Shown here in pieces: positions 5,561 to 35,934 of a DNA stretch of 64,000 bases. Source of the stretch: an uncultured Alphaproteobacteria bacterium (GTDB lineage Bacteria > Pseudomonadota > Alphaproteobacteria > Rs-D84). Position 1 is the first letter of the stretch. Each line of letters begins with the position of its first letter. A program made the position numbers and the translations under genes. The stretch is taken from the NCBI GenBank assembly GCA_934255455.1, contig CAKQNS010000002.1, positions 11,007 through 75,006 on the forward strand, given 5' to 3'. Below the pieces are notes generated by a model. It was given only the letters and a program-made list of their open reading frames with translations, made no database searches and was not told where the DNA came from.

Positions 5561-6973
5561 CTATGGTTCCACAATTACAATCTCGGACCACGCGCCACCA
5601 CCATTACCATCGGCCGCAAATATATAGTTGCCAGCCGTTTCGGGCGCCGTCATGCCACCAGTTGCCGAAATGGTATCGCCATCAATCGTGATGTTCGTGC
5701 CCGCGGTCAATTTATTTTGCTTGCCCGCCAACGCGGTGTTGATGTCGGTCTTGGTGTAATATTGGTCCGCATCAAATGTACCAGATTGGGTAATTTTCGC
5801 ATCAACCTCGGTCTTGGTATATGCGTCACCAATGCCATATCCCGCCAGGGTTGTTGCCTTGTCCGCCTTGGTCGCGATTGATGCAGTGTTTGCCTCTATC
5901 GCGGCGGTATTTGCATCTATGGCATTTTTATTTGCACTGATGTTTGTGGCATTCGCACCAATCAATGTACGCACCGCCGTGTCGTCATACGATTTCGCCG
6001 AAATGGTATCGCCATCAATCGTGATGTTCGTACCCGCGGTCAATTTATTTTGTTTGTCCGCCAATGCCGTGTTCGTTTCGGTCTTGGTATAATATTGTTC
6101 CGCATCAAATGTACCAGAATCACGGATTTTCGCATCAACTTCGGCCTTGGTATAAACATCCGTCTTGGCCGCATAGATTGCCGACAGTGCACTGATTGCA
6201 TCTGCAATCGCGGTGTTCATTTGCTCTGTTGTGGAATATGCACTTAAATCCGCCGGAGTACCGGGTTCACCCGCCGGCCCCTGGGGCCCAGTGATTTCCG
6301 CCTTGGAAATCAGAATTCGCCAATCAGCATCACCCTCGCCCGCATAGCGCCATAACAGGTCGTTGTCATTTGAACCAATTTCAACCTCGCGCCCATCCTG
6401 GCCGGCGATGCTGCCTATTTCGTCTTTTAACCCATCAACATCAACATAAATTTGATTTGTTGTATTATCAATTACAATAAAACCGTTCAGTGTCGGTTCC
6501 AGCGTATCTTGTTTGTCACCCAATTGGCTTGATAAACTATCGTCCGCTTGGTGCAGTTCCTCGGTATCGCGCTGTAATTGGTCAATTTGACGACGCAAAT
6601 CCGCCACAACCGACGGATCAGTTGTACCACCTTCGCCCGGTTCCGGACGCACAGAACTGCCCCCGCTGACGGATGTGGTGCCCCCCAAATATTTTCCAAT
6701 AGATAAACGCGGTGTTGTTGCCACACGACCCGTTGTTGTTGCGGCCACCGGCTTTGCCGTCGCCGTCGTGCCGGTTTTACCAGCCGTTGGTGTCACACGC
6801 AATGACCCCGCACGCGCCGCACCGGTCGATGTTGCATTTGATGCGGCCGACGCACTGGAGTATGTTCCAGCCCCACCCAGCGAACGCACCGACGATGCCG
6901 CGTCAGCCCCGGAAACCGTGGCGCACACCGCACACACAATCGCAAGTATCGATATTTTGGTGTTATTTTTCAT
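5561..6973 (-). CDS. Secreted protein g5 of the tandem family; collagen-like triplet and phage-tail-fibre-like repeats
   Basis: Signal peptide MKNNTKISILAIVCAVCATVSGADA. KQDTL box as in g2/g3. …WRILISKAEITGPQGPAGEPGTP… Two ~55-aa direct repeats YTK(A/T)EVDAKI…GTFDA(E/D)QYYTKT…LA(D/G)KQNKLTAGTNITIDGDTISA. C-terminus …GGGAWSEIVIVEP. Confidence 0.75.
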   Translation of the reverse strand: MKNNTKISILAIVCAVCATVSGADAASSVRSLGGAGTYSSASAASNATSTGAARAGSLRVTPTAGKTGTTATAKPVAATTTGRVATTPRLSIGKYLGGTTSVSGGSSVRPEPGEGGTTDPSVVADLRRQIDQLQRDTEELHQADDSLSSQLGDKQDTLEPTLNGFIVIDNTTNQIYVDVDGLKDEIGSIAGQDGREVEIGSNDNDLLWRYAGEGDADWRILISKAEITGPQGPAGEPGTPADLSAYSTTEQMNTAIADAISALSAIYAAKTDVYTKAEVDAKIRDSGTFDAEQYYTKTETNTALADKQNKLTAGTNITIDGDTISAKSYDDTAVRTLIGANATNISANKNAIDANTAAIEANTASIATKADKATTLAGYGIGDAYTKTEVDAKITQSGTFDADQYYTKTDINTALAGKQNKLTAGTNITIDGDTISATGGMTAPETAGNYIFAADGNGGGAWSEIVIVEP

Positions 6974-7035
6974 GACTCTCTCTGCTTACATTGATTCTAT
7001 CATATTTTGCGAATCGGGGTCAATACTTTTTCTCA

Positions 7036-7767
7036 TTAAAATTCGTATCTGACGCCAACCGAAATAGAATTATCCCAAATCATGTCGATTTTGTTTTCAA
7101 AATTGCCGTATGTCGGGGTGTTATCCTTGATACCAATGCTGTGTTTTGTGCCCGTCATACCCGCCAAACGATAACGCAAATCTAATATCAAATTGTCGTC
7201 CAATTTGGTTGAATATCCAACTGCGATGTTCGCCATTGGCGCAATTGATGTTTTGCTGCGACTGGTTCCATCGGAATATATATTTGCAAATTTAACATCC
7301 AATGTTGTCATTGGCGCGGCAATACCCAAACCACCACCAACATACACGCCGTTCAAGAAATCATAGTATCCGTTGGCCGAAATATATGGGATTTGCAGGC
7401 TGAATTCTGAACCTGCATCTTTGTCTTCGAAATGACCGATGTATCCGGCTTCGACCTCGCCCCGCCAGAAATAGCCAAAATGGCGACCGGCGGCCAAACT
7501 GCCCCCGAATACGGGTTCAAACGAATAACTGTCACTGTTGGACGACAAATCGGCACCCGCCGCCAACAAATCAGACGAGTATTTATTCTTCCAATTCAGG
7601 AAACTAATCTCGGCACGAGCGGTCATATACCAGCCTGTTTTTGCCTTGTCCGTGTAATCGTATGTCACATTATAACCGCCACGACGATCCGGTTGAATAT
7701 AGCTGGGCGCCGCGGTGGCCGCGGTTGTCATACCAACCAGCACAAACAACGAAACTAATTTTTTCAT
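7036..7767 (-). CDS. Outer-membrane beta-barrel protein (porin/OmpA-like barrel family)
   Basis: Signal peptide MKKLVSLFVLVGMTTAATAA. Alternating amphipathic beta-strand pattern. C-terminal …SVGVRYEF ends in the aromatic residue typical of OMP barrels. Strong RBS AAGGAG before ATG 7767. Confidence 0.65.
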   Translation of the reverse strand: MKKLVSLFVLVGMTTAATAAPSYIQPDRRGGYNVTYDYTDKAKTGWYMTARAEISFLNWKNKYSSDLLAAGADLSSNSDSYSFEPVFGGSLAAGRHFGYFWRGEVEAGYIGHFEDKDAGSEFSLQIPYISANGYYDFLNGVYVGGGLGIAAPMTTLDVKFANIYSDGTSRSKTSIAPMANIAVGYSTKLDDNLILDLRYRLAGMTGTKHSIGIKDNTPTYGNFENKIDMIWDNSISVGVRYEF

Positions 7768-7845
7768 GTTAAAATTCTCCTTCCAATATCTTGGGCAAAG
7801 TATATCACATTTTTGCCCTGTTTCAAAACCATAAAAAAACAAATA

Positions 7846-7915: not shown

Positions 7916-8317
7916 ATGAAGAAAATTTTTGCTTGCATTACATTATTGGGTTTGGCGGCATGTTGTGGCGCCCCGAAAGACATTAATAATGACCAGGTTT
8001 ATTTCGCGTTTGATTCTGCAAAGATTTCGGATCAGGCACGCGACAGTCTGGATGCCCAGGCAAAATATATGAAATTACATCCCGACCAAAATGTCCGACT
8101 GGAGGGTCATTGTGACGAACGCGGTTCCACCGAATATAATTTGGCATTGGGCGCATTGCGCGCGGGCAACGCCGCACATGTTTTAATTCGTGACGGAATT
8201 GAACCAGAACGTATTAAAACTATTTCATACGGCAAAGAAAACCCGCAATACCCCGGCAGTGGCGAAGAAATATGGGCCAAAAACAGAAATGTCACAACCA
8301 AGGTTGTGGAAAAATAA
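7916..8317 (+). CDS. pal: Peptidoglycan-associated lipoprotein Pal (OmpA-family C-terminal domain)
   Basis: Lipobox LAACCG. …VYFAFDSAKISDQARDSLDAQAKYMKLHPDQNVRLEGHCDERGSTEYNLALGALRAGNAA…ISYGKENP is the canonical Pal/OmpA peptidoglycan-binding motif set. RBS AAGGGAAAG. Confidence 0.9.
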   Translation: MKKIFACITLLGLAACCGAPKDINNDQVYFAFDSAKISDQARDSLDAQAKYMKLHPDQNVRLEGHCDERGSTEYNLALGALRAGNAAHVLIRDGIEPERIKTISYGKENPQYPGSGEEIWAKNRNVTTKVVEK

Positions 8318-8319
8318 CA

Positions 8320-8343
8320 AACGGGGCATCGCCCCGTTTTTTC
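8320..8343 (+). terminator. Intrinsic terminator of pal (ggggcatcgcccc plus T-run)
   Basis: Perfect GC hairpin followed by TTTTTT, 3 bp after the pal stop. Confidence 0.7.
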
Positions 8344-8441
8344 AAAGTTCAAATACCAAAGTGCAAAGTTCAAATAATGTGTGCGCCGGATGACGCACTG
8401 CTTTATTCATTTGAACTTTGAACTCTGAACTTTGAACTTTT
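8343..8441. repeat. ~98-bp palindromic repeat element: AAAGTTCAAA-type arms around central hairpin gtgcgccggatgacgcac
   Basis: Imperfect inverted arms (aaagttcaaataccaaagtgcaaagttcaaataa … ttattcatttgaactttgaactctgaactttgaacttt). About 95% identical to the copy at 11341-11437. Confidence 0.8.
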
Positions 8442-8480
8442 CTTTTGACCCCGATTTTTTTTTTTACTAATATCCAAATC

Positions 8481-9272
8481 ATGGAAGAAAAGACAGCGAT
8501 TTCATTTGCAAATGTGGCCGCCGCGTACGACGGTGGGCGCGATGTTTTAACAGATGTTTCATTTAACATCAGTGCGGGGGCATTCTATTTCCTATCGGGC
8601 GCGTCGGGCGCGGGTAAAACCACCCTATTACGACTGATATACCAATTACACCGACCATCACGCGGGCAAATTAAATTATTCGGTCAACCAACCGACGGAA
8701 TTTCGCGCGACGATATTGCGCGCCTGCGTCACAAAATGGCGATTGTATTCCAAGAATATTCTTTGCTGTCACATTTGACGGTGTTTGACAACATTGCATT
8801 ACCGTTGCGTGTGCGCGGCCTGCCCGATGATAAAATAAAAAAATTGGTGGCCAAGGTTCTGGAATGGGTTGGCCTGGCCAAATATGCCGATGCAAACCCA
8901 ATGGCGCTGTCGGGCGGTCAACAACAACGCGTATCGGTTGCGCGTGCGATTATTAGCCAACCGGCGATATTACTGGCCGACGAACCGACCGGAAATCTGG
9001 ACGACGAAAACGCATCGCGGTTGATGGAACTGTTTATACAAATGAACAAAATGTTCGGCACAACGATAATTTTGGCCACCCATAATCAAAAATTGATGGA
9101 CACCTATAAATTCCCGGTTATTCACGTGGAAAACCATCGGGTTGGCTTTATTGGTGGCACGAAAAAGGCCCCTGCCCCGGAATCTGATGTGAAAAAGGTA
9201 TGGAAGGGCCCCAAGCCACAAAACTATTTTTCAGAATTATCAAAACAATTTGACGATATTGGGAACGCGTAA
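8481..9272 (+). CDS. ftsE: Cell-division ABC transporter ATPase FtsE
   Basis: Walker A GASGAGKTT, ABC signature LSGGQQQRV, Walker B LLADEPTGNLD. Stop overlaps the ftsX start. The ORF track begins at TTG 8445; ATG 8481 is the likely start. Confidence 0.85.
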   Translation: MEEKTAISFANVAAAYDGGRDVLTDVSFNISAGAFYFLSGASGAGKTTLLRLIYQLHRPSRGQIKLFGQPTDGISRDDIARLRHKMAIVFQEYSLLSHLTVFDNIALPLRVRGLPDDKIKKLVAKVLEWVGLAKYADANPMALSGGQQQRVSVARAIISQPAILLADEPTGNLDDENASRLMELFIQMNKMFGTTIILATHNQKLMDTYKFPVIHVENHRVGFIGGTKKAPAPESDVKKVWKGPKPQNYFSELSKQFDDIGNA

Positions 9273-10111
9273 TGAAAACACCTGTTGTATTTTCGCTGGT
9301 ACGCCAGCAATCTGTATTTATGACGGCAATTATGTCATTGCTGACATTTTTGGCGGTGCTGTCGCTGGGAATTGGATTGGCCATTGGTACCGGCGTTATG
9401 CGTTGGAATACCCAGTGGGATTTATTTGCAACGGTTCAAATAACCGATACAAAAAATGCCGCATCGGTAAAGCAAATTATTACCGATAATCACGACAAAA
9501 TGGCATCTGTTGATGAAATCACAACAACCGAAATGCAAAATTTAATGCGGCCGTGGCTGTCATCGGGTGGTGATACACTGAAAAAATACCTGCCACAAAT
9601 GTATGAAATAAAATTCAAATCTAAATCCGATTTGCAATATGTTGAACAGCAAATTTCAAATCGCGCGCGTTTTCTGACACATGCCAACGCGTTAAAGACA
9701 TCGACAAACGCGGGATGGTATTTGATTCTGATTTCAACACTGGTTTTGACAATGGTGTTGGGCACGATTGGCGTATGCATATCGTACATCGCACGCAATA
9801 CCGCAATGCTGCATAAACGCGAATTAGAAATATTAAACCAAATTGGCGCATCCGATTCGTTTGTTGCCCGCCAAATGCAAATCATTGTGGCAAAAATATC
9901 TGCAACATCGGGCCTGGTTGGGTTTATGGCGGCGGCATTGATTTTAATGATGGTGCTGGGCGCCGCACGCACCGCACGGGTTGGACTGATGGCGATGCTG
10001 GGGTTATCTGGGTGGGGATGGTTTGCATTGGCGTTGTTGCCGGTGGTAATTATGTTTTTCGCAATGGAAATTTCACGCCGTACGACATTAAAGATTCTTG
10101 AAAATAATTGA
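9272..10111 (+). CDS. ftsX: Cell-division permease FtsX
   Basis: 279 aa with four TM segments in FtsX topology (N-terminal TM, periplasmic loop, three C-terminal TM). Translationally coupled to ftsE. Confidence 0.75.
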   Translation: MKTPVVFSLVRQQSVFMTAIMSLLTFLAVLSLGIGLAIGTGVMRWNTQWDLFATVQITDTKNAASVKQIITDNHDKMASVDEITTTEMQNLMRPWLSSGGDTLKKYLPQMYEIKFKSKSDLQYVEQQISNRARFLTHANALKTSTNAGWYLILISTLVLTMVLGTIGVCISYIARNTAMLHKRELEILNQIGASDSFVARQMQIIVAKISATSGLVGFMAAALILMMVLGAARTARVGLMAMLGLSGWGWFALALLPVVIMFFAMEISRRTTLKILENN

Positions 10112-27454: not shown

Positions 27455-29434
27455 ATGACAGAAAATAATACACACACATACGACGCATCAGATATTCAGG
27501 TACTGGAAGGTTTAGAGCCCGTTCGTCTGCGCCCCGGCATGTATATTGGCGGCACCGACGAAAAGGCATGGCATCACCTGCCGATTGAAATTATGGACAA
27601 CTCGATTGACGAGGCGGTGGCCGGTTTTGCCAAGAAAATCACCGTAAACCTGATTGATGCCAAAACAATTGAAATTACCGACGATGGTCGCGGTATTCCG
27701 GTTGATGAACACCCAAAATACCCGGGCAAATCCGCGTTAGAGGTTATTTTAACCACACTGCATTCGGGCGGTAAATTTAACAACAATGTTTATAAAACCA
27801 GTGGTGGTCTGCACGGCGTGGGCAGTGCGGTCGTAAACGCGTTGTCGCAAGAGATGATTGTGACAATTTCCCGCGATGGATATGAATGGCACCAAACTTT
27901 TTCACGCGGGAAACCTACAACCGCAATGACCCGCGGTGATGCAACACGGGCGCACGGAACAAAAATCCGCTTTACCATTGATGACGAAATATTCGGCGCA
28001 AATGCGGTGTTCAAACCGGTCAAGATTTACCGTATGGCGCGTGCGAAATCTTTCCTGTCGCGCGGGGTCAAAATTGATTGGCATTGTAATCCAGAATTAT
28101 TGACCGAGGATATGAACATCCCCGCCGATACGACATTCTATTACCCGGGTGGTGTGGCCGATTTCTTGGACGAAAAAACCCGTGACAAACCACGCATTTT
28201 GCCAAAAATTTTCAGTGGCAGTGTTGATTTCCCGGACGATTCCGGTCGCGTGGAATGGGCGTTGACGGTGTTGACCGATGAAAACGGAGCGGCGTCTGAC
28301 GATGGATTTTTTGCATCATATTGCAATACAATTGCAACAATTGATGGCGGCACACACGAAACCGGATTCAAGGCCGCAATTACCAAGGGGATAAAGGCAT
28401 ACGGCGAAAAAGTAAACAACAAATCCGCCACCACAATCATTGGTGATGATGTATTTGATTCGGTCGCCGCAATTGTATCTGTGTTCTACAAAACACCGCA
28501 ATTTTTGGGCCAGACCAAGGAAAAATTATCTAACCCTGAAATTGCACGATACACTGAAAATGCCCTGCGCGACCCATGGGAAATATTCTTGGCATCCGAC
28601 CCCAAAACGGCAAACGCGTTGTTGGATTTTGTGGTAAACCTGGCAAATGCCCGTATCAAAACCAAACAGGTCAAGGATATTGCCCGCAAAACCCCGACCA
28701 AGCGCGCCCGTATGCCGGCGAAATTGGCCGATTGTTCAAAACACGGAATCGAAGGCACCGAATTATTTATTGTCGAGGGCGAATCTGCGGGCGGCACTGC
28801 AAAACAGGCGCGCGACCGTGCGACCCAGGCAATTATGCCCCTGCGTGGCAAGGTATTAAATGTTATCTCTAATTCCGACGAACGATTCGGTGCGAACAAG
28901 GAATTAAACGAACTGATTGACATTATCGGTGCCGGCACGGCCAAGGATTGGGATGAATCCAAACTGCGCTATGAAAAAATTATCGTTATGACCGATGCCG
29001 ATGTCGATGGCAGCCATATTGCATCACTGTTGATGGCGTTTTTCTATCAGCACATGCCACAATTGATTTATGGTGGCCACCTGTACCTGTCGTGCCCACC
29101 ACTGTATAAATTCACATGCGGCACAGAATCATTTTATGTTGACAGTGACGAAGAATTGGACGCATTGCAAAACGGCAAATATAAAAATAAAAAGGTGGAA
29201 ATTTCCCGATTCAAGGGTTTGGGCGAAATGATGCCCAACCAGTTAAAGGAAACAACCATGTCGCCAAAAACGCGTCGGTTGATTCGCGTCGACCTGCCCC
29301 CGCGGACGGACGATGGCGCCGAAGACACGGAAAAAACCCGCACAATTGTTTCCGAACTGATGGGGAAAAAGCCCGAATTTCGTTTCCGCTTTATCACTGA
29401 ACACGCACAATTTGTCAAAGATTTGTTTGTCTGA
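27455..29434 (+). CDS. parE: Type IIA topoisomerase ATPase subunit, most likely topoisomerase IV ParE (659 aa); GyrB not excluded
   Basis: GHKL ATPase motifs (…EIMDNSIDEA…DDGRGIP…GLHGVGSAVVNALS…), Toprim (…ELFIVEGESAGG…DADVDGSHI…). The length fits ParE rather than GyrB (~800 aa). Confidence 0.8.
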   Translation: MTENNTHTYDASDIQVLEGLEPVRLRPGMYIGGTDEKAWHHLPIEIMDNSIDEAVAGFAKKITVNLIDAKTIEITDDGRGIPVDEHPKYPGKSALEVILTTLHSGGKFNNNVYKTSGGLHGVGSAVVNALSQEMIVTISRDGYEWHQTFSRGKPTTAMTRGDATRAHGTKIRFTIDDEIFGANAVFKPVKIYRMARAKSFLSRGVKIDWHCNPELLTEDMNIPADTTFYYPGGVADFLDEKTRDKPRILPKIFSGSVDFPDDSGRVEWALTVLTDENGAASDDGFFASYCNTIATIDGGTHETGFKAAITKGIKAYGEKVNNKSATTIIGDDVFDSVAAIVSVFYKTPQFLGQTKEKLSNPEIARYTENALRDPWEIFLASDPKTANALLDFVVNLANARIKTKQVKDIARKTPTKRARMPAKLADCSKHGIEGTELFIVEGESAGGTAKQARDRATQAIMPLRGKVLNVISNSDERFGANKELNELIDIIGAGTAKDWDESKLRYEKIIVMTDADVDGSHIASLLMAFFYQHMPQLIYGGHLYLSCPPLYKFTCGTESFYVDSDEELDALQNGKYKNKKVEISRFKGLGEMMPNQLKETTMSPKTRRLIRVDLPPRTDDGAEDTEKTRTIVSELMGKKPEFRFRFITEHAQFVKDLFV

Positions 29435-29718
29435 TGCGCCGCTGCATACCACTGAAATGGGTGCGGCGCGCATTAGGGGAAACCTGGGGCTGGCGGCGGA
29501 TGCCGATGTTGTGCGATTTTGCCGCGATGCGATTTATGGCGCCGAAATTATCCACCACGGAAAAAATTACTATGCCACACACCGCGATTTGGTGATTACA
29601 ATAAACGCAACATCATTCACGATAATAACCGCACACAAAATCAAGCAGCCACACCAGTGATTGACAATTTGATTTTTTGTATTATATTACACAAGCAATA
29701 AACAAGGAAAATATTAAA

Positions 29719-30234
29719 ATGACAAATTTAAGTAAAGTGGCACAGATACACAAAAGCCATAAAAAGAAGAATACTTATATAGTACACCTGGACGGCGAAT
29801 TTAATATGCCAGCATTCTGGGAAGAATTCAGCAAATCGCCATTGACCATTTTGGCCAAAAACGGCGAAACGGTTCAAGAAGTCGGCCGCTGTATGCGTTG
29901 CACCAAATTCCCAAACCCTGGCGCAATTCAAATGCATCGCGAATATCGCTATTTGGCCAAGGTAGATAAAAAATTGGCGTCAACCGTTGTTGAATATTTG
30001 GACAAGGACACCGGCGCACCGGTAGCATTATTGTACCCAACAGACCTGTATGTGTATGAAGAATATCGTGACAACGATTTCTTGGCACATTTGAATCATG
30101 CGTCACGTCAAGATTTTGCCCGCCAAATGGATTTGCGCACCAAAATGCTGGACAAGGCAATCACCATGGGCCAAGGATTACAAATAACGAGAAAAAAATG
30201 GCAAGCACAAAACACAAAAACACATACATTGTAA
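29719..30234 (+). CDS. Hypothetical cytoplasmic protein, paralog A of a tandem pair
   Basis: ATG 29719 with RBS AAGGAAAA. Shares K(K)NTYIV…DG…FPNPGA…EY…KLAST(V/I)VEYLDKD…PV…LYPT…HLNHA(S/T)R(Q/R)D…RQ with the next gene. No known domain recognised. Confidence 0.55.
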   Translation: MTNLSKVAQIHKSHKKKNTYIVHLDGEFNMPAFWEEFSKSPLTILAKNGETVQEVGRCMRCTKFPNPGAIQMHREYRYLAKVDKKLASTVVEYLDKDTGAPVALLYPTDLYVYEEYRDNDFLAHLNHASRQDFARQMDLRTKMLDKAITMGQGLQITRKKWQAQNTKTHTL

Positions 30235-30632
30235 AAATTGATGGCACAATGGCCGACTTGCAGGCCTTTGCCATGTGCGACCACGCTCCACTGCCAGTCG
30301 TCACATTTAATGGGGCGCCGGTTAAACAAAATGCCGGCGGGTGGATGAACTCGGTTCGTTTTCCAAACCCAGGGGCATCGTATATGTCATCGGAATATAA
30401 AAATATCGTTCCCCACTTTGGCGAAAAATTGGCATCAACAATTGTTGAATACCTGGACAAAGATAACAAAACGCCAGTTGTATATTTATACCCAACAATT
30501 ATTTTGGTTTGTGATGGATATAGTGAAACATATCAAACGCACCTTAATCATGCAACGCGTCGCGATTTGGTTCGTCAAATCAAAAAACGCATGGAAGCAT
30601 TAAATAGAATGGAACAACAAAAACAACTATAA
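30198..30632 (+). CDS. Hypothetical cytoplasmic protein, paralog B of a tandem pair
   Basis: 144 aa. Clear homolog of 29719-30234 (see motifs). Start overlaps the 3' end of paralog A in another frame. Confidence 0.55.
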   Translation: MASTKHKNTYIVKIDGTMADLQAFAMCDHAPLPVVTFNGAPVKQNAGGWMNSVRFPNPGASYMSSEYKNIVPHFGEKLASTIVEYLDKDNKTPVVYLYPTIILVCDGYSETYQTHLNHATRRDLVRQIKKRMEALNRMEQQKQL

Positions 30633-30640
30633 CAAAAACA

Positions 30641-30668
30641 CCGGCAATGCCGGTGCTTTTGTTTTCCC
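30641..30668. terminator. Bidirectional terminator (caccggcaatgccggtg flanked by A/T runs)
   Basis: Between convergent genes 30198-30632 (+) and 30679-32154 (-). Confidence 0.65.
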
Positions 30669-30678
30669 ACATCTTTGT

Positions 30679-32154
30679 TTATTGGATACCGACGCGGAAC
30701 TCGTCACCCCAACCGGCGACGGCCTGGCCGCCAACGGTACATTGCAGGGCATCAAAACCTTTTTCAACTTGATTTTTCTTGACCACATGGCTGGTAACCA
30801 AACCACCGGTCGTTCCCAGTACAACCGCAGCAATGGAATCTGATGCCAAACGTGCGGTGTTGAAATTACCCTCGGCATCTTTCCACACGGTCACCTTGAA
30901 ATCATCTTGCATGCTGTCCAATTTGCTGATGATACCACTGATTTTATTGCGCGATGTTGTTTGCTGAACCGACAACTGCGCCGCCGCGGCGTTTTGCGCC
31001 TGTTGGTTTTGCGCTGAAATAAGCGCACGCAATTGCGCCATTAAACTGTTAAATTTAATCGAATCGCGATTGCTGTCATTTGTACAGAATTCTAAAATCG
31101 CATTGATTTTGTTTTGAATTTCGGCGTTTGTTGCATATTGTTCCAACCAGGCATACAACATATTCAAATCAGATTCCGCACAGGTATATGTGGATTGGTT
31201 GTTATTATTTTGCACAACTGTGGCGCCAACACAACTGCGGCTTGATGCATTAAATGTTTTTGTCGCATCAACACATGTGCAATTCGTACCGTTCCATGTT
31301 GCAACCGACGATGGCATATAACAACATGCCTTGCCCTCGGCCGAGGAACGCGAATTCAAACATTTTTGCAACGCGCCACTTTGTACGACGCCCTTGGCCA
31401 CACATTTTTTGTTGACTGCGTCCCACACATGTTTATCGCCACAATTGCATGCCGTGCCATTCCAATTTGTAGGCTCACCCCGGGCGGCGGCCGCCACACA
31501 ATCGGACTGGGCCGCGGTCGCGCCACCATTTGATGTGTTATTACTTGCAATGCCCGCGACCGAACATTTGCCATTATTTACCACCATACCTTCAATACAC
31601 TTGGTCGCCTTGCATACAAATTTTGGTCCCTCGCGGCAAACACCTTCAAATTCAACACCATTTTGATCGGTCATTTCAATACCGCTGCATTCGATTTTGG
31701 TCAAAACACGTACGGCGCCATCCTTCATCAAATGTTGTCCAACCGGAACATCACCAAACGAATTTGTTTTGCAGACGCCGTCCTGCAATTCTTCCCACCG
31801 GTCATTTCCACCCTTGCCACCACGGAATAACAATTCCGTTTTACAGATGTACGATGCCTTGTGATTGATTATTTGTCCCTTGAATACATGTCCGACCGGC
31901 ATAGTCACAGATTGCCCCGTGGTATACCCACCAGAATTATATGCGTCACATTCGTATGCGTACCCACCACCAGAATTTTTATGTCCGGTCGTTTCATACC
32001 CATTTTTCGCCATATTATACTGTGTCGCATTTTCATACAAAAATTCGTCATCATCTGGTTTTTGTGAACCCTCGTAACTGATGATGGTTGCGCCGGCCGC
32101 AAATACCGACATTGGTGCCATTGCCAAAAACAAAACTGCTAGTATTTTTTTCAT
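30679..32154 (-). CDS. Secreted cysteine-rich repeat protein (hypothetical)
   Basis: Signal peptide MKKILAVLFLAMAPMSVFA. About 30 Cys. Internal duplicated unit (T/N)WNGT(A/N)C(N/T)C(G/V)D…(K/S)(K/R)CV(A/G)…VVQ. Cys-free Gln/Ala-rich C-terminal ~150 aa. Confidence 0.6.
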   Translation of the reverse strand: MKKILAVLFLAMAPMSVFAAGATIISYEGSQKPDDDEFLYENATQYNMAKNGYETTGHKNSGGGYAYECDAYNSGGYTTGQSVTMPVGHVFKGQIINHKASYICKTELLFRGGKGGNDRWEELQDGVCKTNSFGDVPVGQHLMKDGAVRVLTKIECSGIEMTDQNGVEFEGVCREGPKFVCKATKCIEGMVVNNGKCSVAGIASNNTSNGGATAAQSDCVAAAARGEPTNWNGTACNCGDKHVWDAVNKKCVAKGVVQSGALQKCLNSRSSAEGKACCYMPSSVATWNGTNCTCVDATKTFNASSRSCVGATVVQNNNNQSTYTCAESDLNMLYAWLEQYATNAEIQNKINAILEFCTNDSNRDSIKFNSLMAQLRALISAQNQQAQNAAAAQLSVQQTTSRNKISGIISKLDSMQDDFKVTVWKDAEGNFNTARLASDSIAAVVLGTTGGLVTSHVVKKNQVEKGFDALQCTVGGQAVAGWGDEFRVGIQ

Positions 32155-32284
32155 TCTCTTTCTCCGTAATCATGGGACGCGGTGCATTCCCATTCATATT
32201 CATCGTGTATATTTTATCATAAAACAGGCCCCAATCCAAGAGATAAACTTAAAATTAAAACCGCGCCATTTGCGCGGTTGTGCA

Positions 32285-34983: not shown

Positions 34984-35820
34984 TTACGCTTCCAATGCAC
35001 GGATTAAATCGTCGTAATCCAAATTTGTGCATTCGGCGGGCTTGCCAACCGTATTCCAAATGCTGTTTTCACATTCGGCCTTTAATTCTTTCAGGCTTTG
35101 TAAAAACGCACTGTATTGTGTTGGTTTTTCTTTCTTTAACGCCAACAATTGACTGCGCAGCAATTCATCATCGGCCAATGCCTTTTGTCCCTGGACCTTG
35201 CCGCCAATCAGTTTATTTCCGAACAATTCCATTACACCAACACCAACGCCGGCGCCACCAACCGCGCCACCAACGGTCGCCCATACGCGGGCCTTTTTCT
35301 TGGCATCCAGAATGCGTTGTTGCATTTTGGCCTCGTCCACCCAGGCACCACATGTGATATTTTGTCCCCATTCATAATACTGGGTTGGAATATCCGAAAC
35401 ATCAATGCGCGAATCGGTCGATTTCATACCAACCTTAACAAAGCATGTGTTGTTTTCTGGATTCTCGGTATCCTCGGTCATGGTGGCATAATTTGATGTA
35501 TTGCTGTACCGCGACGCCCAAACGAACGTGTTGCCAACGCCAATATTATTACTTATGCATGCCTTTTTTTCAGCCTCGCGCGTGTCAACAGCCGGCTTTT
35601 CCGGTTCGGTGGGTTCCACACGAACACTGGATTTATTATCCGACGGATTTGACATAGACATAGATGCCATCGCACTCAGTTGCCCCGTTGATGCCGTGGC
35701 ACGCGGTGCACTGGCAACCATTTGCGTCTGCATTGAACGACGCGAATGTCCGGCCGCCTCTAACGCAAACGACGGCGCCACAAAAACGCTGAACACTATC
35801 AAAGAAACTATCGCTTTCAT
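34984..35820 (-). CDS. Hypothetical secreted protein
   Basis: Signal peptide MKAIVSLIVFSVFVAPSFA. Gly-rich GGAVGGAGVGVGV segment. No recognisable domain. Confidence 0.5.
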   Translation of the reverse strand: MKAIVSLIVFSVFVAPSFALEAAGHSRRSMQTQMVASAPRATASTGQLSAMASMSMSNPSDNKSSVRVEPTEPEKPAVDTREAEKKACISNNIGVGNTFVWASRYSNTSNYATMTEDTENPENNTCFVKVGMKSTDSRIDVSDIPTQYYEWGQNITCGAWVDEAKMQQRILDAKKKARVWATVGGAVGGAGVGVGVMELFGNKLIGGKVQGQKALADDELLRSQLLALKKEKPTQYSAFLQSLKELKAECENSIWNTVGKPAECTNLDYDDLIRALEA

Positions 35821-35934
35821 TATGGAATCCCCCACTACTTTGGTGGGTATTATACCACAAAATCGACCAAAAATAAAGGCCAAATGCAATACCGCAAAAA
35901 AATCGGGCCGCAAATTACGCGACCCACAATTGAT

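Follow-up and report, generated by a model that had tools for sequence, protein, structure and literature searches.

The variant-specific surface proteins (VSPs) of Giardia have a signal peptide, a variable Cys-rich ectodomain, a conserved C-terminal transmembrane (TM) segment, and a conserved Cys-containing tail, and they are rich in CXXC motifs and end in CRGKA. In trimeric autotransporters such as YadA and Hia (type Vc secretion), a modular head is carried on an extended helical stalk that ends in a short conserved C-terminal anchor of ~60-70 residues, while the bacterial collagen-like surface proteins Scl1/Scl2 and BclA are attached through LPXTG or to the exosporium. Here, we describe a gene whose product can be set beside each of these. 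It lies at 30679-32154 (-) of a 64,000-nucleotide stretch of contig CAKQNS010000002.1 (the window) from an uncultured alphaproteobacterium of the Rs-D84 lineage, and it encodes a complete protein of 491 aa plus stop with an ATG start. The protein is a member of a large unnamed family confined to tiny-genome gut Alphaproteobacteria (Rs-D84/Candidatus Enterousia). The family is an orphan with clear limits; its modules are new, its C-terminal anchor is unusually frozen, and the divergence of its head is fast. We propose a function and a localization below, where the protein is probably a cell-contact protein and not a borrowed eukaryotic EGF/TNFR domain.

The likeness to the VSPs is one of analogy, and it consists of the signal peptide, the variable Cys-rich ectodomain, the conserved C-terminal segment with its Cys-bearing tail, and the gut habitat. 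However, VSPs are eukaryotic and CXXC-rich, while the target protein contains no CxxC-spaced Cys pair; the VSP tail has 5 residues (CRGKA) as opposed to 31 here; no sequence relationship was detected; and one or two genes are seen per locus instead of a large switching repertoire. The succession of modular head, helical stalk, and short anchor recalls the trimeric autotransporters, from which the target differs in lacking four amphipathic strands and a terminal aromatic residue, in having a helical-type hydrophobic segment, and in having a disulfide-rich passenger. As in Scl1/Scl2 and BclA, some relatives (P0106, P0113, and P0114) carry between 6 and 11 GXY triplets between the variable head and the conserved anchor, but the anchors are unrelated, that of the target being a TM-like module, and the window protein itself has no GXY repeat. 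Lastly, SlyB and the Rickettsia 17-kDa antigen, with their Gly-zipper domains (GxxxGxxxG), share with the target a short Gly-rich hydrophobic segment with a small-residue stripe (G/A443-G447-G451-S455) in an alphaproteobacterial envelope protein; the target has no Pfam Gly-zipper match, has a single segment where these have a 2TM hairpin, and is not a lipoprotein.

The part of the protein that is most conserved is its C-terminal module (residues 424-491; 30682-30885 (-)), delimited by profile, fixed length, and conservation. When the final 84 residues were made into a profile and run against 1.84 billion representative proteins, 954 clusters at 50% identity were retrieved. The E value is <= 1e-10 for 919 of these clusters, and the match falls almost always at the extreme C-terminus of proteins whose N-terminal regions are very different and mostly Cys-rich. 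Both the sequence and the geometry of the module are conserved to an extreme degree: 235 of 246 members count exactly 68 residues from W424 to the C-terminus, 18 positions show no variation among 190 distinct sequences, and the last 71 codons differ from those of the closest metagenome-assembled genome (MAG), L007, by 13 synonymous and 0 nonsynonymous changes. The module comprises a juxtamembrane motif (W-x4-G-x-FN-xx-RL-x-SD), a Gly-zipper segment at 440-458, K459-K460, and a 31-aa tail with an invariant C472, GGQ, and D484. An earlier note on this DNA, which had described the C-terminal region as probably helical, missed these last 68 residues, which are more than a plain helical tail. Such conservation goes far beyond what a passive anchor needs, which argues for specific packing or a conserved partner.

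Residues 440-458 (SIAAVVLGTTGGLVTSHVV; 30781-30837 (-)) form a putative TM helix, as judged by hydropathy and the small-residue stripe. The mean Kyte-Doolittle value is 1.57, and the segment is uniformly hydrophobic with no amphipathic periodicity (beta moment 0.14). The stripe G443/G447/G451/S455 follows a GxxxGxxxGxxxS pattern in which position 443 is G or A. On the N side of the segment, D439 is 100% conserved, and on the C side, K459-K460 are conserved at 99%, while the terminal residue is Q in 73%, R in 13%, and K in 8% of members. The combination of a signal peptide (residues 1-19), the 440-458 segment, and positive charges on its C side is what would be expected of a type I (N-out, C-in) single-pass protein, with the reservation that the hydrophobicity is marginal. 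We infer the membrane topology, the identity of the membrane, and the oligomeric state discussed below. A C-terminal sorting signal of the PEP-CTERM, GlyGly-CTERM, or LPXTG-like kind was also considered, but no NCBIfam sorting-signal model matches, and the conserved 31-residue tail sets the protein apart from sorting signals, despite its motif, hydrophobic segment, and KK.

At the other end, the predicted signal peptide (residues 1-19, MKKILAVLFLAMAPMSVFA, followed by AG; 32098-32154 (-)) was assigned by hydropathy and the -3/-1 rule. The N-terminus reads MKK, then ILAVLFLAMAPMSVFA, with the cut placed before AG; read by eye, this looks like a classical Sec/SPase I signal, in which a basic n-region precedes a hydrophobic core of 15 residues and positions -3 to -1 are V-F-A. 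The homologues align with equivalent signal peptides, and many of them show an SPase I site followed by a Cys (xC directly after the cleaved Ala). The view of the earlier note that the 491-aa open reading frame (ORF) encodes a secreted protein with a signal peptide is thus borne out. A lipoprotein was rejected since there is no lipobox Cys near the cleavage site, and a type 1 or type 9 secretion signal (T1SS or T9SS) at the C-terminus was rejected on architecture, given the N-terminal Sec signal; T9SS is in addition not known outside Bacteroidota.

Between these two ends lies a Cys-rich head, although the number of cysteines is smaller than the roughly 30 that had been reported for the N-terminal 330 aa. 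The whole protein contains 21, of which 19 fall within residues 69-325 and the other two are C357, conserved at 90% or more, and C472. Twenty therefore belong to the ectodomain and one to the tail. Across the family, the number of cysteines between the signal-peptide site and the hydrophobic segment is even in 204 of 226 members (p = 4e-38), with most of the odd counts traceable to visibly mis-cut signal peptides, and the tail has exactly one Cys in 222 of 223. Cys columns are also gained and lost pairwise (phi = 1.0 for several pairs, 0.89 and 0.80 for others); the window protein, for example, is missing the N-terminal 'CNSP' Cys as well as C77, both of which nearly all relatives have. Parity and co-variation of this kind are the marks of a disulfide-rich extracytoplasmic protein, and the patterns fit a fully disulfide-bonded ectodomain with a separate, lone Cys beyond the hydrophobic segment, which is the arrangement expected for an N-out/C-in single-pass protein. 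The disulfides themselves we infer from these patterns.

The layout of the head was derived from homologue alignments and AlphaFold models, in which the N-terminal domain reaches a predicted local distance difference test score (pLDDT) of 91. It begins with a module we call subA (residues 20-125; 31780-32097 (-)), characterized by DDEFLY...YECD...GHVFKG...YxC...W and modeled at pLDDT >90 as mainly beta-stranded with one alpha-helix. A second module, subB (residues 126-200; 31555-31779 (-)), is modeled as disulfide-stapled beta-hairpins and ends in CKATKC...GKC. After a low-complexity linker (residues ~201-217) come two copies of a CxC module. Copy 1 (residues ~218-259, C..ARGEPTNWNGTACNCGDKHVWDAVNKKC; 31378-31503 (-)) is an extra cassette not found in most orthologues: most rows of alignment A1 are gapped here and the C251 column is Cys in 31% of rows, while near-identical copy-1 cassettes (RGEPANWNG..CNCGD..W) occur in the otherwise divergent P0067, P0077, and P0055. 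Copy 2 (residues ~265-316, C...ACC...ATWNGTNCTCVD...F...C; 31207-31362 (-)) is the canonical family module, with C265, C277, C278, C292, C294, and C308 conserved at 90-100%. The internal duplication pointed out in the earlier note is real, as the alignment of residues ~231-259 with ~286-316 has a Smith-Waterman score of 65 compared to 26.6 +/- 5.4 in shuffled sequences, and 0 of 2000 shuffles reached 65. It is detectable at the protein level only, with no DNA-level repeat found, and is therefore old.

The head modules are shuffled across the family. Among the 247 members scanned with module hidden Markov models (HMMs), 142 carry subA, with 1-4 tandem copies each; 79 carry subB; and 137 carry the CxC module, with 1-3 copies each. 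Downstream of the head, the AlphaFold model assigns residues 325-420 (30895-31182 (-)) to a helical region, composed of two short helices (327-358) bracketed by C325 and C357 and then a 56-residue Q/A-rich helix (365-420) that is taken to be a stalk or coiled coil. The C-terminal region had been called Cys-free, Q/A-rich, and probably helical; the helices are there, but so are C357 and C472. In congeneric relatives, collagen-like GXY repeats (GPAGRDGKDGKDG...) sit between the head and the pre-anchor helix (P0106, residues 363-383; P0113, 436-453; P0114, 382-414; these hold 6, 7, and 11 triplets), and their copy number differs between near-identical relatives, which hints at trimeric stalks and at variation in repeat length.

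The distribution of the family is narrow. A search of 5.8 billion proteins returned >505 relatives, all of them without a functional name or Pfam domains; three that are labeled are each a 'hypothetical protein' from 'MAG: Alphaproteobacteria bacterium'. When genomes were scanned, with one genome per species, 330 encoding sites were found, and the best 80 of these all come from gut MAGs labeled Candidatus Enterousia, Alphaproteobacteria, or Rickettsiales, with hosts that include humans (Hadza), chicken, sheep, goat, deer, buffalo, yak, rabbit, mouse, and termites. The closest relative is a Hadza MAG in which the target protein is 93% identical and its neighbors ~97%. A further profile search with the N-domain alignment (A4) gave just two unnamed fragments from 1414 candidates, a result that seems to reflect a limitation of the word index and is not informative on how the N-domain is distributed. 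Restriction to one order and to a housekeeping locus argues for a lineage-specific invention instead of an acquired eukaryote-like domain.

That locus is well conserved, with dnaA upstream in 65 of 86 loci and parE adjacent downstream in 61 of 86. Across these loci the neighboring proteins are ~91% (ParE), ~79% (DnaJ), ~68% (DnaA), and ~64% (DprA) identical, in comparison to 30-45% for the target family protein, which is often only partly alignable. In the syntenic orthologue at the congeneric locus L006 (ParE 98%, DnaA 82%), identity is 32% over the whole protein and ~94% over the last 70 residues, and the CxC modules and stalk have been replaced by another subA-like domain and a collagen-like (GXY)7. 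The head thus diverges fast while the anchor stays frozen. L006 also carries a divergent paralogue, head-to-head with this orthologue (6396-7808 (-) and 8001-9539 (+)), and such divergent adjacent pairs on opposite strands occur at nine loci in total (L006, L083, L074, L017, L034, L053, L020, L022, and L046), mostly between dnaA and parE, where the two members have in common only the C-terminal ~110 residues. A single copy is seen in the window, where no paralogue of the target protein was found. One family member, P0089 (L004 8001-9551), from a rumen MAG, lies away from the dnaA-parE site, between a YgjP-like gene and hisS, so that the link of the family to that site is not a strict one. As a separate observation on this block, the ParE-like topoisomerase of the window (27455-29434 (+)) is 90-98% identical in loci where DnaA is 58-82% and DprA 58-77%, an unusually large disparity between neighbors.

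Members of Rs-D84/Candidatus Enterousia are widespread, uncultured inhabitants of the guts of humans, livestock, birds, and termites. Enterousia, within the order Rs-D84, is reported to have genomes of <1 Mb with no respiratory chains and almost no biosynthesis, and an obligate symbiont or parasite lifestyle has been proposed for the lineage (PMC12306168). Dependence on partner cells has been suggested, with no contact-mediating molecule named (PMC12306168). Lineage-confined, usually at one locus, secreted, probably disulfide-stabilized, and built from a variable head on a frozen anchor, the family is a concrete candidate for the cell-contact interface of Rs-D84.

The reading that we prefer, and in which we place middling confidence, is that of a lineage-specific cell-envelope protein with a head-stalk-anchor layout. 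The protein would be exported by Sec and its signal peptide removed by SPase I, after which ~300 residues of shuffled Cys-rich modules (subA, subB, and two CxC) would fold outside the cytoplasm with 10 intramolecular disulfides. A helical Q/A-rich stalk, probably oligomeric, would join this head to the almost invariant 68-residue C-terminal module, which would hold the protein in a membrane by one glycine-zipper helix, with D439 facing outward and K459-K460 inward. The conserved 31-residue tail with its one unpaired Cys would lie on the opposite face, presumably as the docking site for a conserved partner. In essence, the variable head would be the ligand-facing part, through which the bacterium most likely contacts a host surface or a different cell, or else it would form a protease-resistant coat. 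Adhesion appears the most likely function because a lineage that has genomes of <1 Mb and is biosynthetically crippled presumably depends on other cells; the partner may possibly be the host or, equally, another microbe.

Several observations weigh against this reading. The 440-458 segment is only marginally hydrophobic (Kyte-Doolittle 1.5; a hand estimate on the Hessa scale of ~+3 kcal/mol), such that stop-transfer in the inner membrane may fail, and AlphaFold is unsure of the anchor, with pLDDT <50 at 440-458 and low confidence over 435-463. A secretin gene and AsmA/TamB-like genes lie nearby and the cells appear to be diderm, in which case a type I anchor in the inner membrane would keep the variable head in the periplasm, a position that is hard to square with a surface or adhesin role or with fast divergence. 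The formation of 10 disulfides is hard to account for in a lineage reported to be without respiratory chains (PMC12306168). In addition, pairwise dN/dS between the target gene and L007 does not show positive selection; it is fast divergence of the head and turnover of its modules that we claim, and not diversifying selection. A crude motif search of the window for thioredoxin-like CxxC proteins, as candidates for Dsb, gave nothing convincing, and how a strictly fermentative bacterium oxidizes ~10 disulfides per molecule is a question that the family raises.

The protein could instead be an outer-membrane adhesin like the trimeric autotransporters, in which ~60 C-terminal residues from each of three chains make a small beta-barrel or pore with stalk and head on the surface. 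This is the main rival to an envelope protein held by a single helix, and although we consider it unlikely, several features speak for it: the layout of head, long helix, and short conserved anchor; a Gly/Ala/Ser/Thr-rich anchor whose hydrophobicity, partly by hand estimate, is too weak for robust inner-membrane stop-transfer; the GXY repeats of close relatives, which hint at trimers; a beta-hairpin placed by AlphaFold at 471-481; and the fast-evolving heads, which surface exposure would explain. The anchor itself does not behave as this model asks, since no YadA_anchor or autotransporter Pfam family was matched by 36 members even at E <= 1, the 440-458 segment is uniformly hydrophobic where beta-type periodicity would be needed, and the last residue is Q, R, or K in ~94% of members in place of the aromatic residue typical of BAM substrates. 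A passenger with ~10 disulfides is also atypical for autotransporter export. Another possibility is a periplasmic protein that is anchored in the inner membrane, is not exposed outside the cell, and does a housekeeping job in the envelope, be it structural, linked to the cell cycle, or a buffer for redox or metals, with a variability that reflects weak constraint and not interaction with partners. This takes the topology signals of a type I membrane protein at face value. It suits a gene that is nearly always directly downstream of dnaA among housekeeping neighbors, that appears near-universal in the lineage, and that is under purifying selection along its whole length, and the many cysteines could bind metals. 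We nevertheless regard it as fairly unlikely: the even parity and pairwise gain and loss of cysteines point to structural disulfides and not to free thiols or metal sites, a terminator separates the gene transcriptionally from dnaA, and the shuffled modules, tandemly amplified subA, collagen-like inserts, and divergent pairs of paralogues are what is typically seen in surface or interaction proteins and not in periplasmic housekeeping proteins. There is also a speculative picture, drawn by analogy and in our view unlikely as a whole, in which the family would be the main surface 'spike' of Rs-D84/Enterousia, with a variable disulfide-locked head, an oligomeric stalk, a Trp/Phe membrane-proximal motif, a glycine-zipper TM, and a Cys tail, likened to the variant surface proteins of eukaryotic parasites or to viral class-I-like glycoproteins. 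Such a spike might attach to a partner or host cell, perhaps in intercellular connections, to obtain metabolites that these genome-reduced bacteria cannot make, with the tail coupled to conserved internal machinery.

The earlier note had instead likened such Cys-rich repeats to eukaryotic EGF/TNFR-like domains used for host interaction; on this view they would be EGF, TNFR, or furin-like domains, acquired or mimicked, that bind receptors of the animal host. The organisms do inhabit animal guts, that of humans included, and the best, though weak, structural matches are all eukaryotic extracellular disulfide modules (FnI, the tPA finger, FXII FnI-EGF, NELL2 EGF, R-spondin Fu, and VWF C4). The CxC-x(5-6)-[WF]-x6-C spacing also recalls, by comparison with the PROSITE EGF signature, the C-terminal half of an EGF domain. 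However, Foldseek gave no match to the Protein Data Bank (PDB) better than E = 0.3, with R-spondin Fu domains appearing at E = 1.4-4 only, and the full AlphaFold model matched just helical bundles, by way of its stalk. None of the EGF families (Pfam EGF, hEGF, and EGF_CA) was matched at E <= 10 by the protein or at E <= 1 by the 36 members, and there was likewise no match to TNFR_c6, furin-like, or FnI (fn1) profiles. Compared with FnI, the tPA 'finger', and EGF-like modules, the number and spacing of cysteines differ, and the ~100-residue subA is without counterpart. A family found in one bacterial order, at a housekeeping locus, with a bacterial-type signal peptide is difficult to reconcile with acquisition, and the lineage also lives in termites, whether or not these harbor gut flagellates (PMC11257099), so that its occurrence does not point to one particular animal receptor. 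We thus find this explanation quite improbable. Nothing in these searches supports membership in, or transfer from, eukaryotic modules, and the intuition of small eukaryote-style disulfide modules holds only in a generic sense, as a disulfide-rich modular protein of a host-associated gut bacterium.

Searches for known domains were otherwise empty. Pfam, NCBIfam, and PHROG scans of the protein gave sub-threshold noise only (DUF4376, E = 0.022; phrog_6376, 0.07), and neither the protein nor the C-terminal profile had any match among PDB sequences, leaving no sign of the common periplasmic enzyme family that would have spoken against the earlier note. A Pfam scan of the 36 relatives gave nothing consistent, including no glycine-zipper family; the sole recurrent match, Trypan_PARP in 8 of 36, was rejected as due to Pro/Glu-rich linkers. 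At least three modules of the protein (subA, subB, and the 68-residue C-terminal anchor) are therefore new to Pfam and have no detectable PDB fold match. The invariant C-terminal module should serve well as a sequence marker for the lineage, and the head may be a target for strain typing or as an antigen.

The lack of any known domain could also be read as the sign of a chance ORF or a decaying, non-functional pseudogene, but hundreds of full-length homologues with a conserved architecture and a pairwise dN/dS of 0.067 against L007 effectively refute this, and AlphaFold pLDDT of 80-91 and the expression signals of the gene also speak against it. The dN/dS value indicates purifying selection and hence a functional gene, and the target is a real, constrained gene, even though its dN is 2-3x that of its neighbors, with a maximum in the linker and CxC region. 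It is equipped with its own expression signals. A Shine-Dalgarno-like GGAG (32162-32165 (-)), read directly from the sequence, lies 7 nt 5' of the ATG, and a terminator-like hairpin with an 8-bp stem, 6 of them GC, and a T-rich tail (32259-32279 (-); terminator scan and sequence) lies just past the dnaA stop, insulating the target gene from dnaA upstream. On the other side is a bidirectional terminator-like hairpin with a 15-bp stem (30631-30663), positive in the scan on both strands and common to the target gene and a convergent small ORF. With a ribosome-binding site of its own and terminators on both sides, the target gene looks monocistronic. No repeats of note were found in the DNA, whether tandem repeats or invertible-promoter-like inverted repeats that could be signs of phase variation.

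The convergent ORFs form a tandem, overlapping, paralogous pair (29677-30234 (+) and 30198-30632 (+); 185 and 144 aa) related through KNTYIV..DG...VEYLDKD...LYP...; both lack a signal peptide, and neither matches anything in Pfam, PHROG, or PDB. Of 86 related loci, 42 have a homologue adjoining parE, which is usually a single ORF where the locus was inspected but a pair in some cases (L001 and L007), and the second ORF (144 aa) is the fastest-evolving of the region (dN 0.11, dN/dS 0.14 vs L007). Cumulative GC skew falls nearly monotonically over the whole 64 kb with no turning point at dnaA, so that the replication origin is probably not beside dnaA in this genome. Upstream of dprA, a 309-aa ORF (34984-35913 (-)) has no Pfam match; L001 and L006 carry ORFs of 276-284 aa without Pfam domains at the same place, and this ORF is another lineage-specific unknown in the same conserved block.

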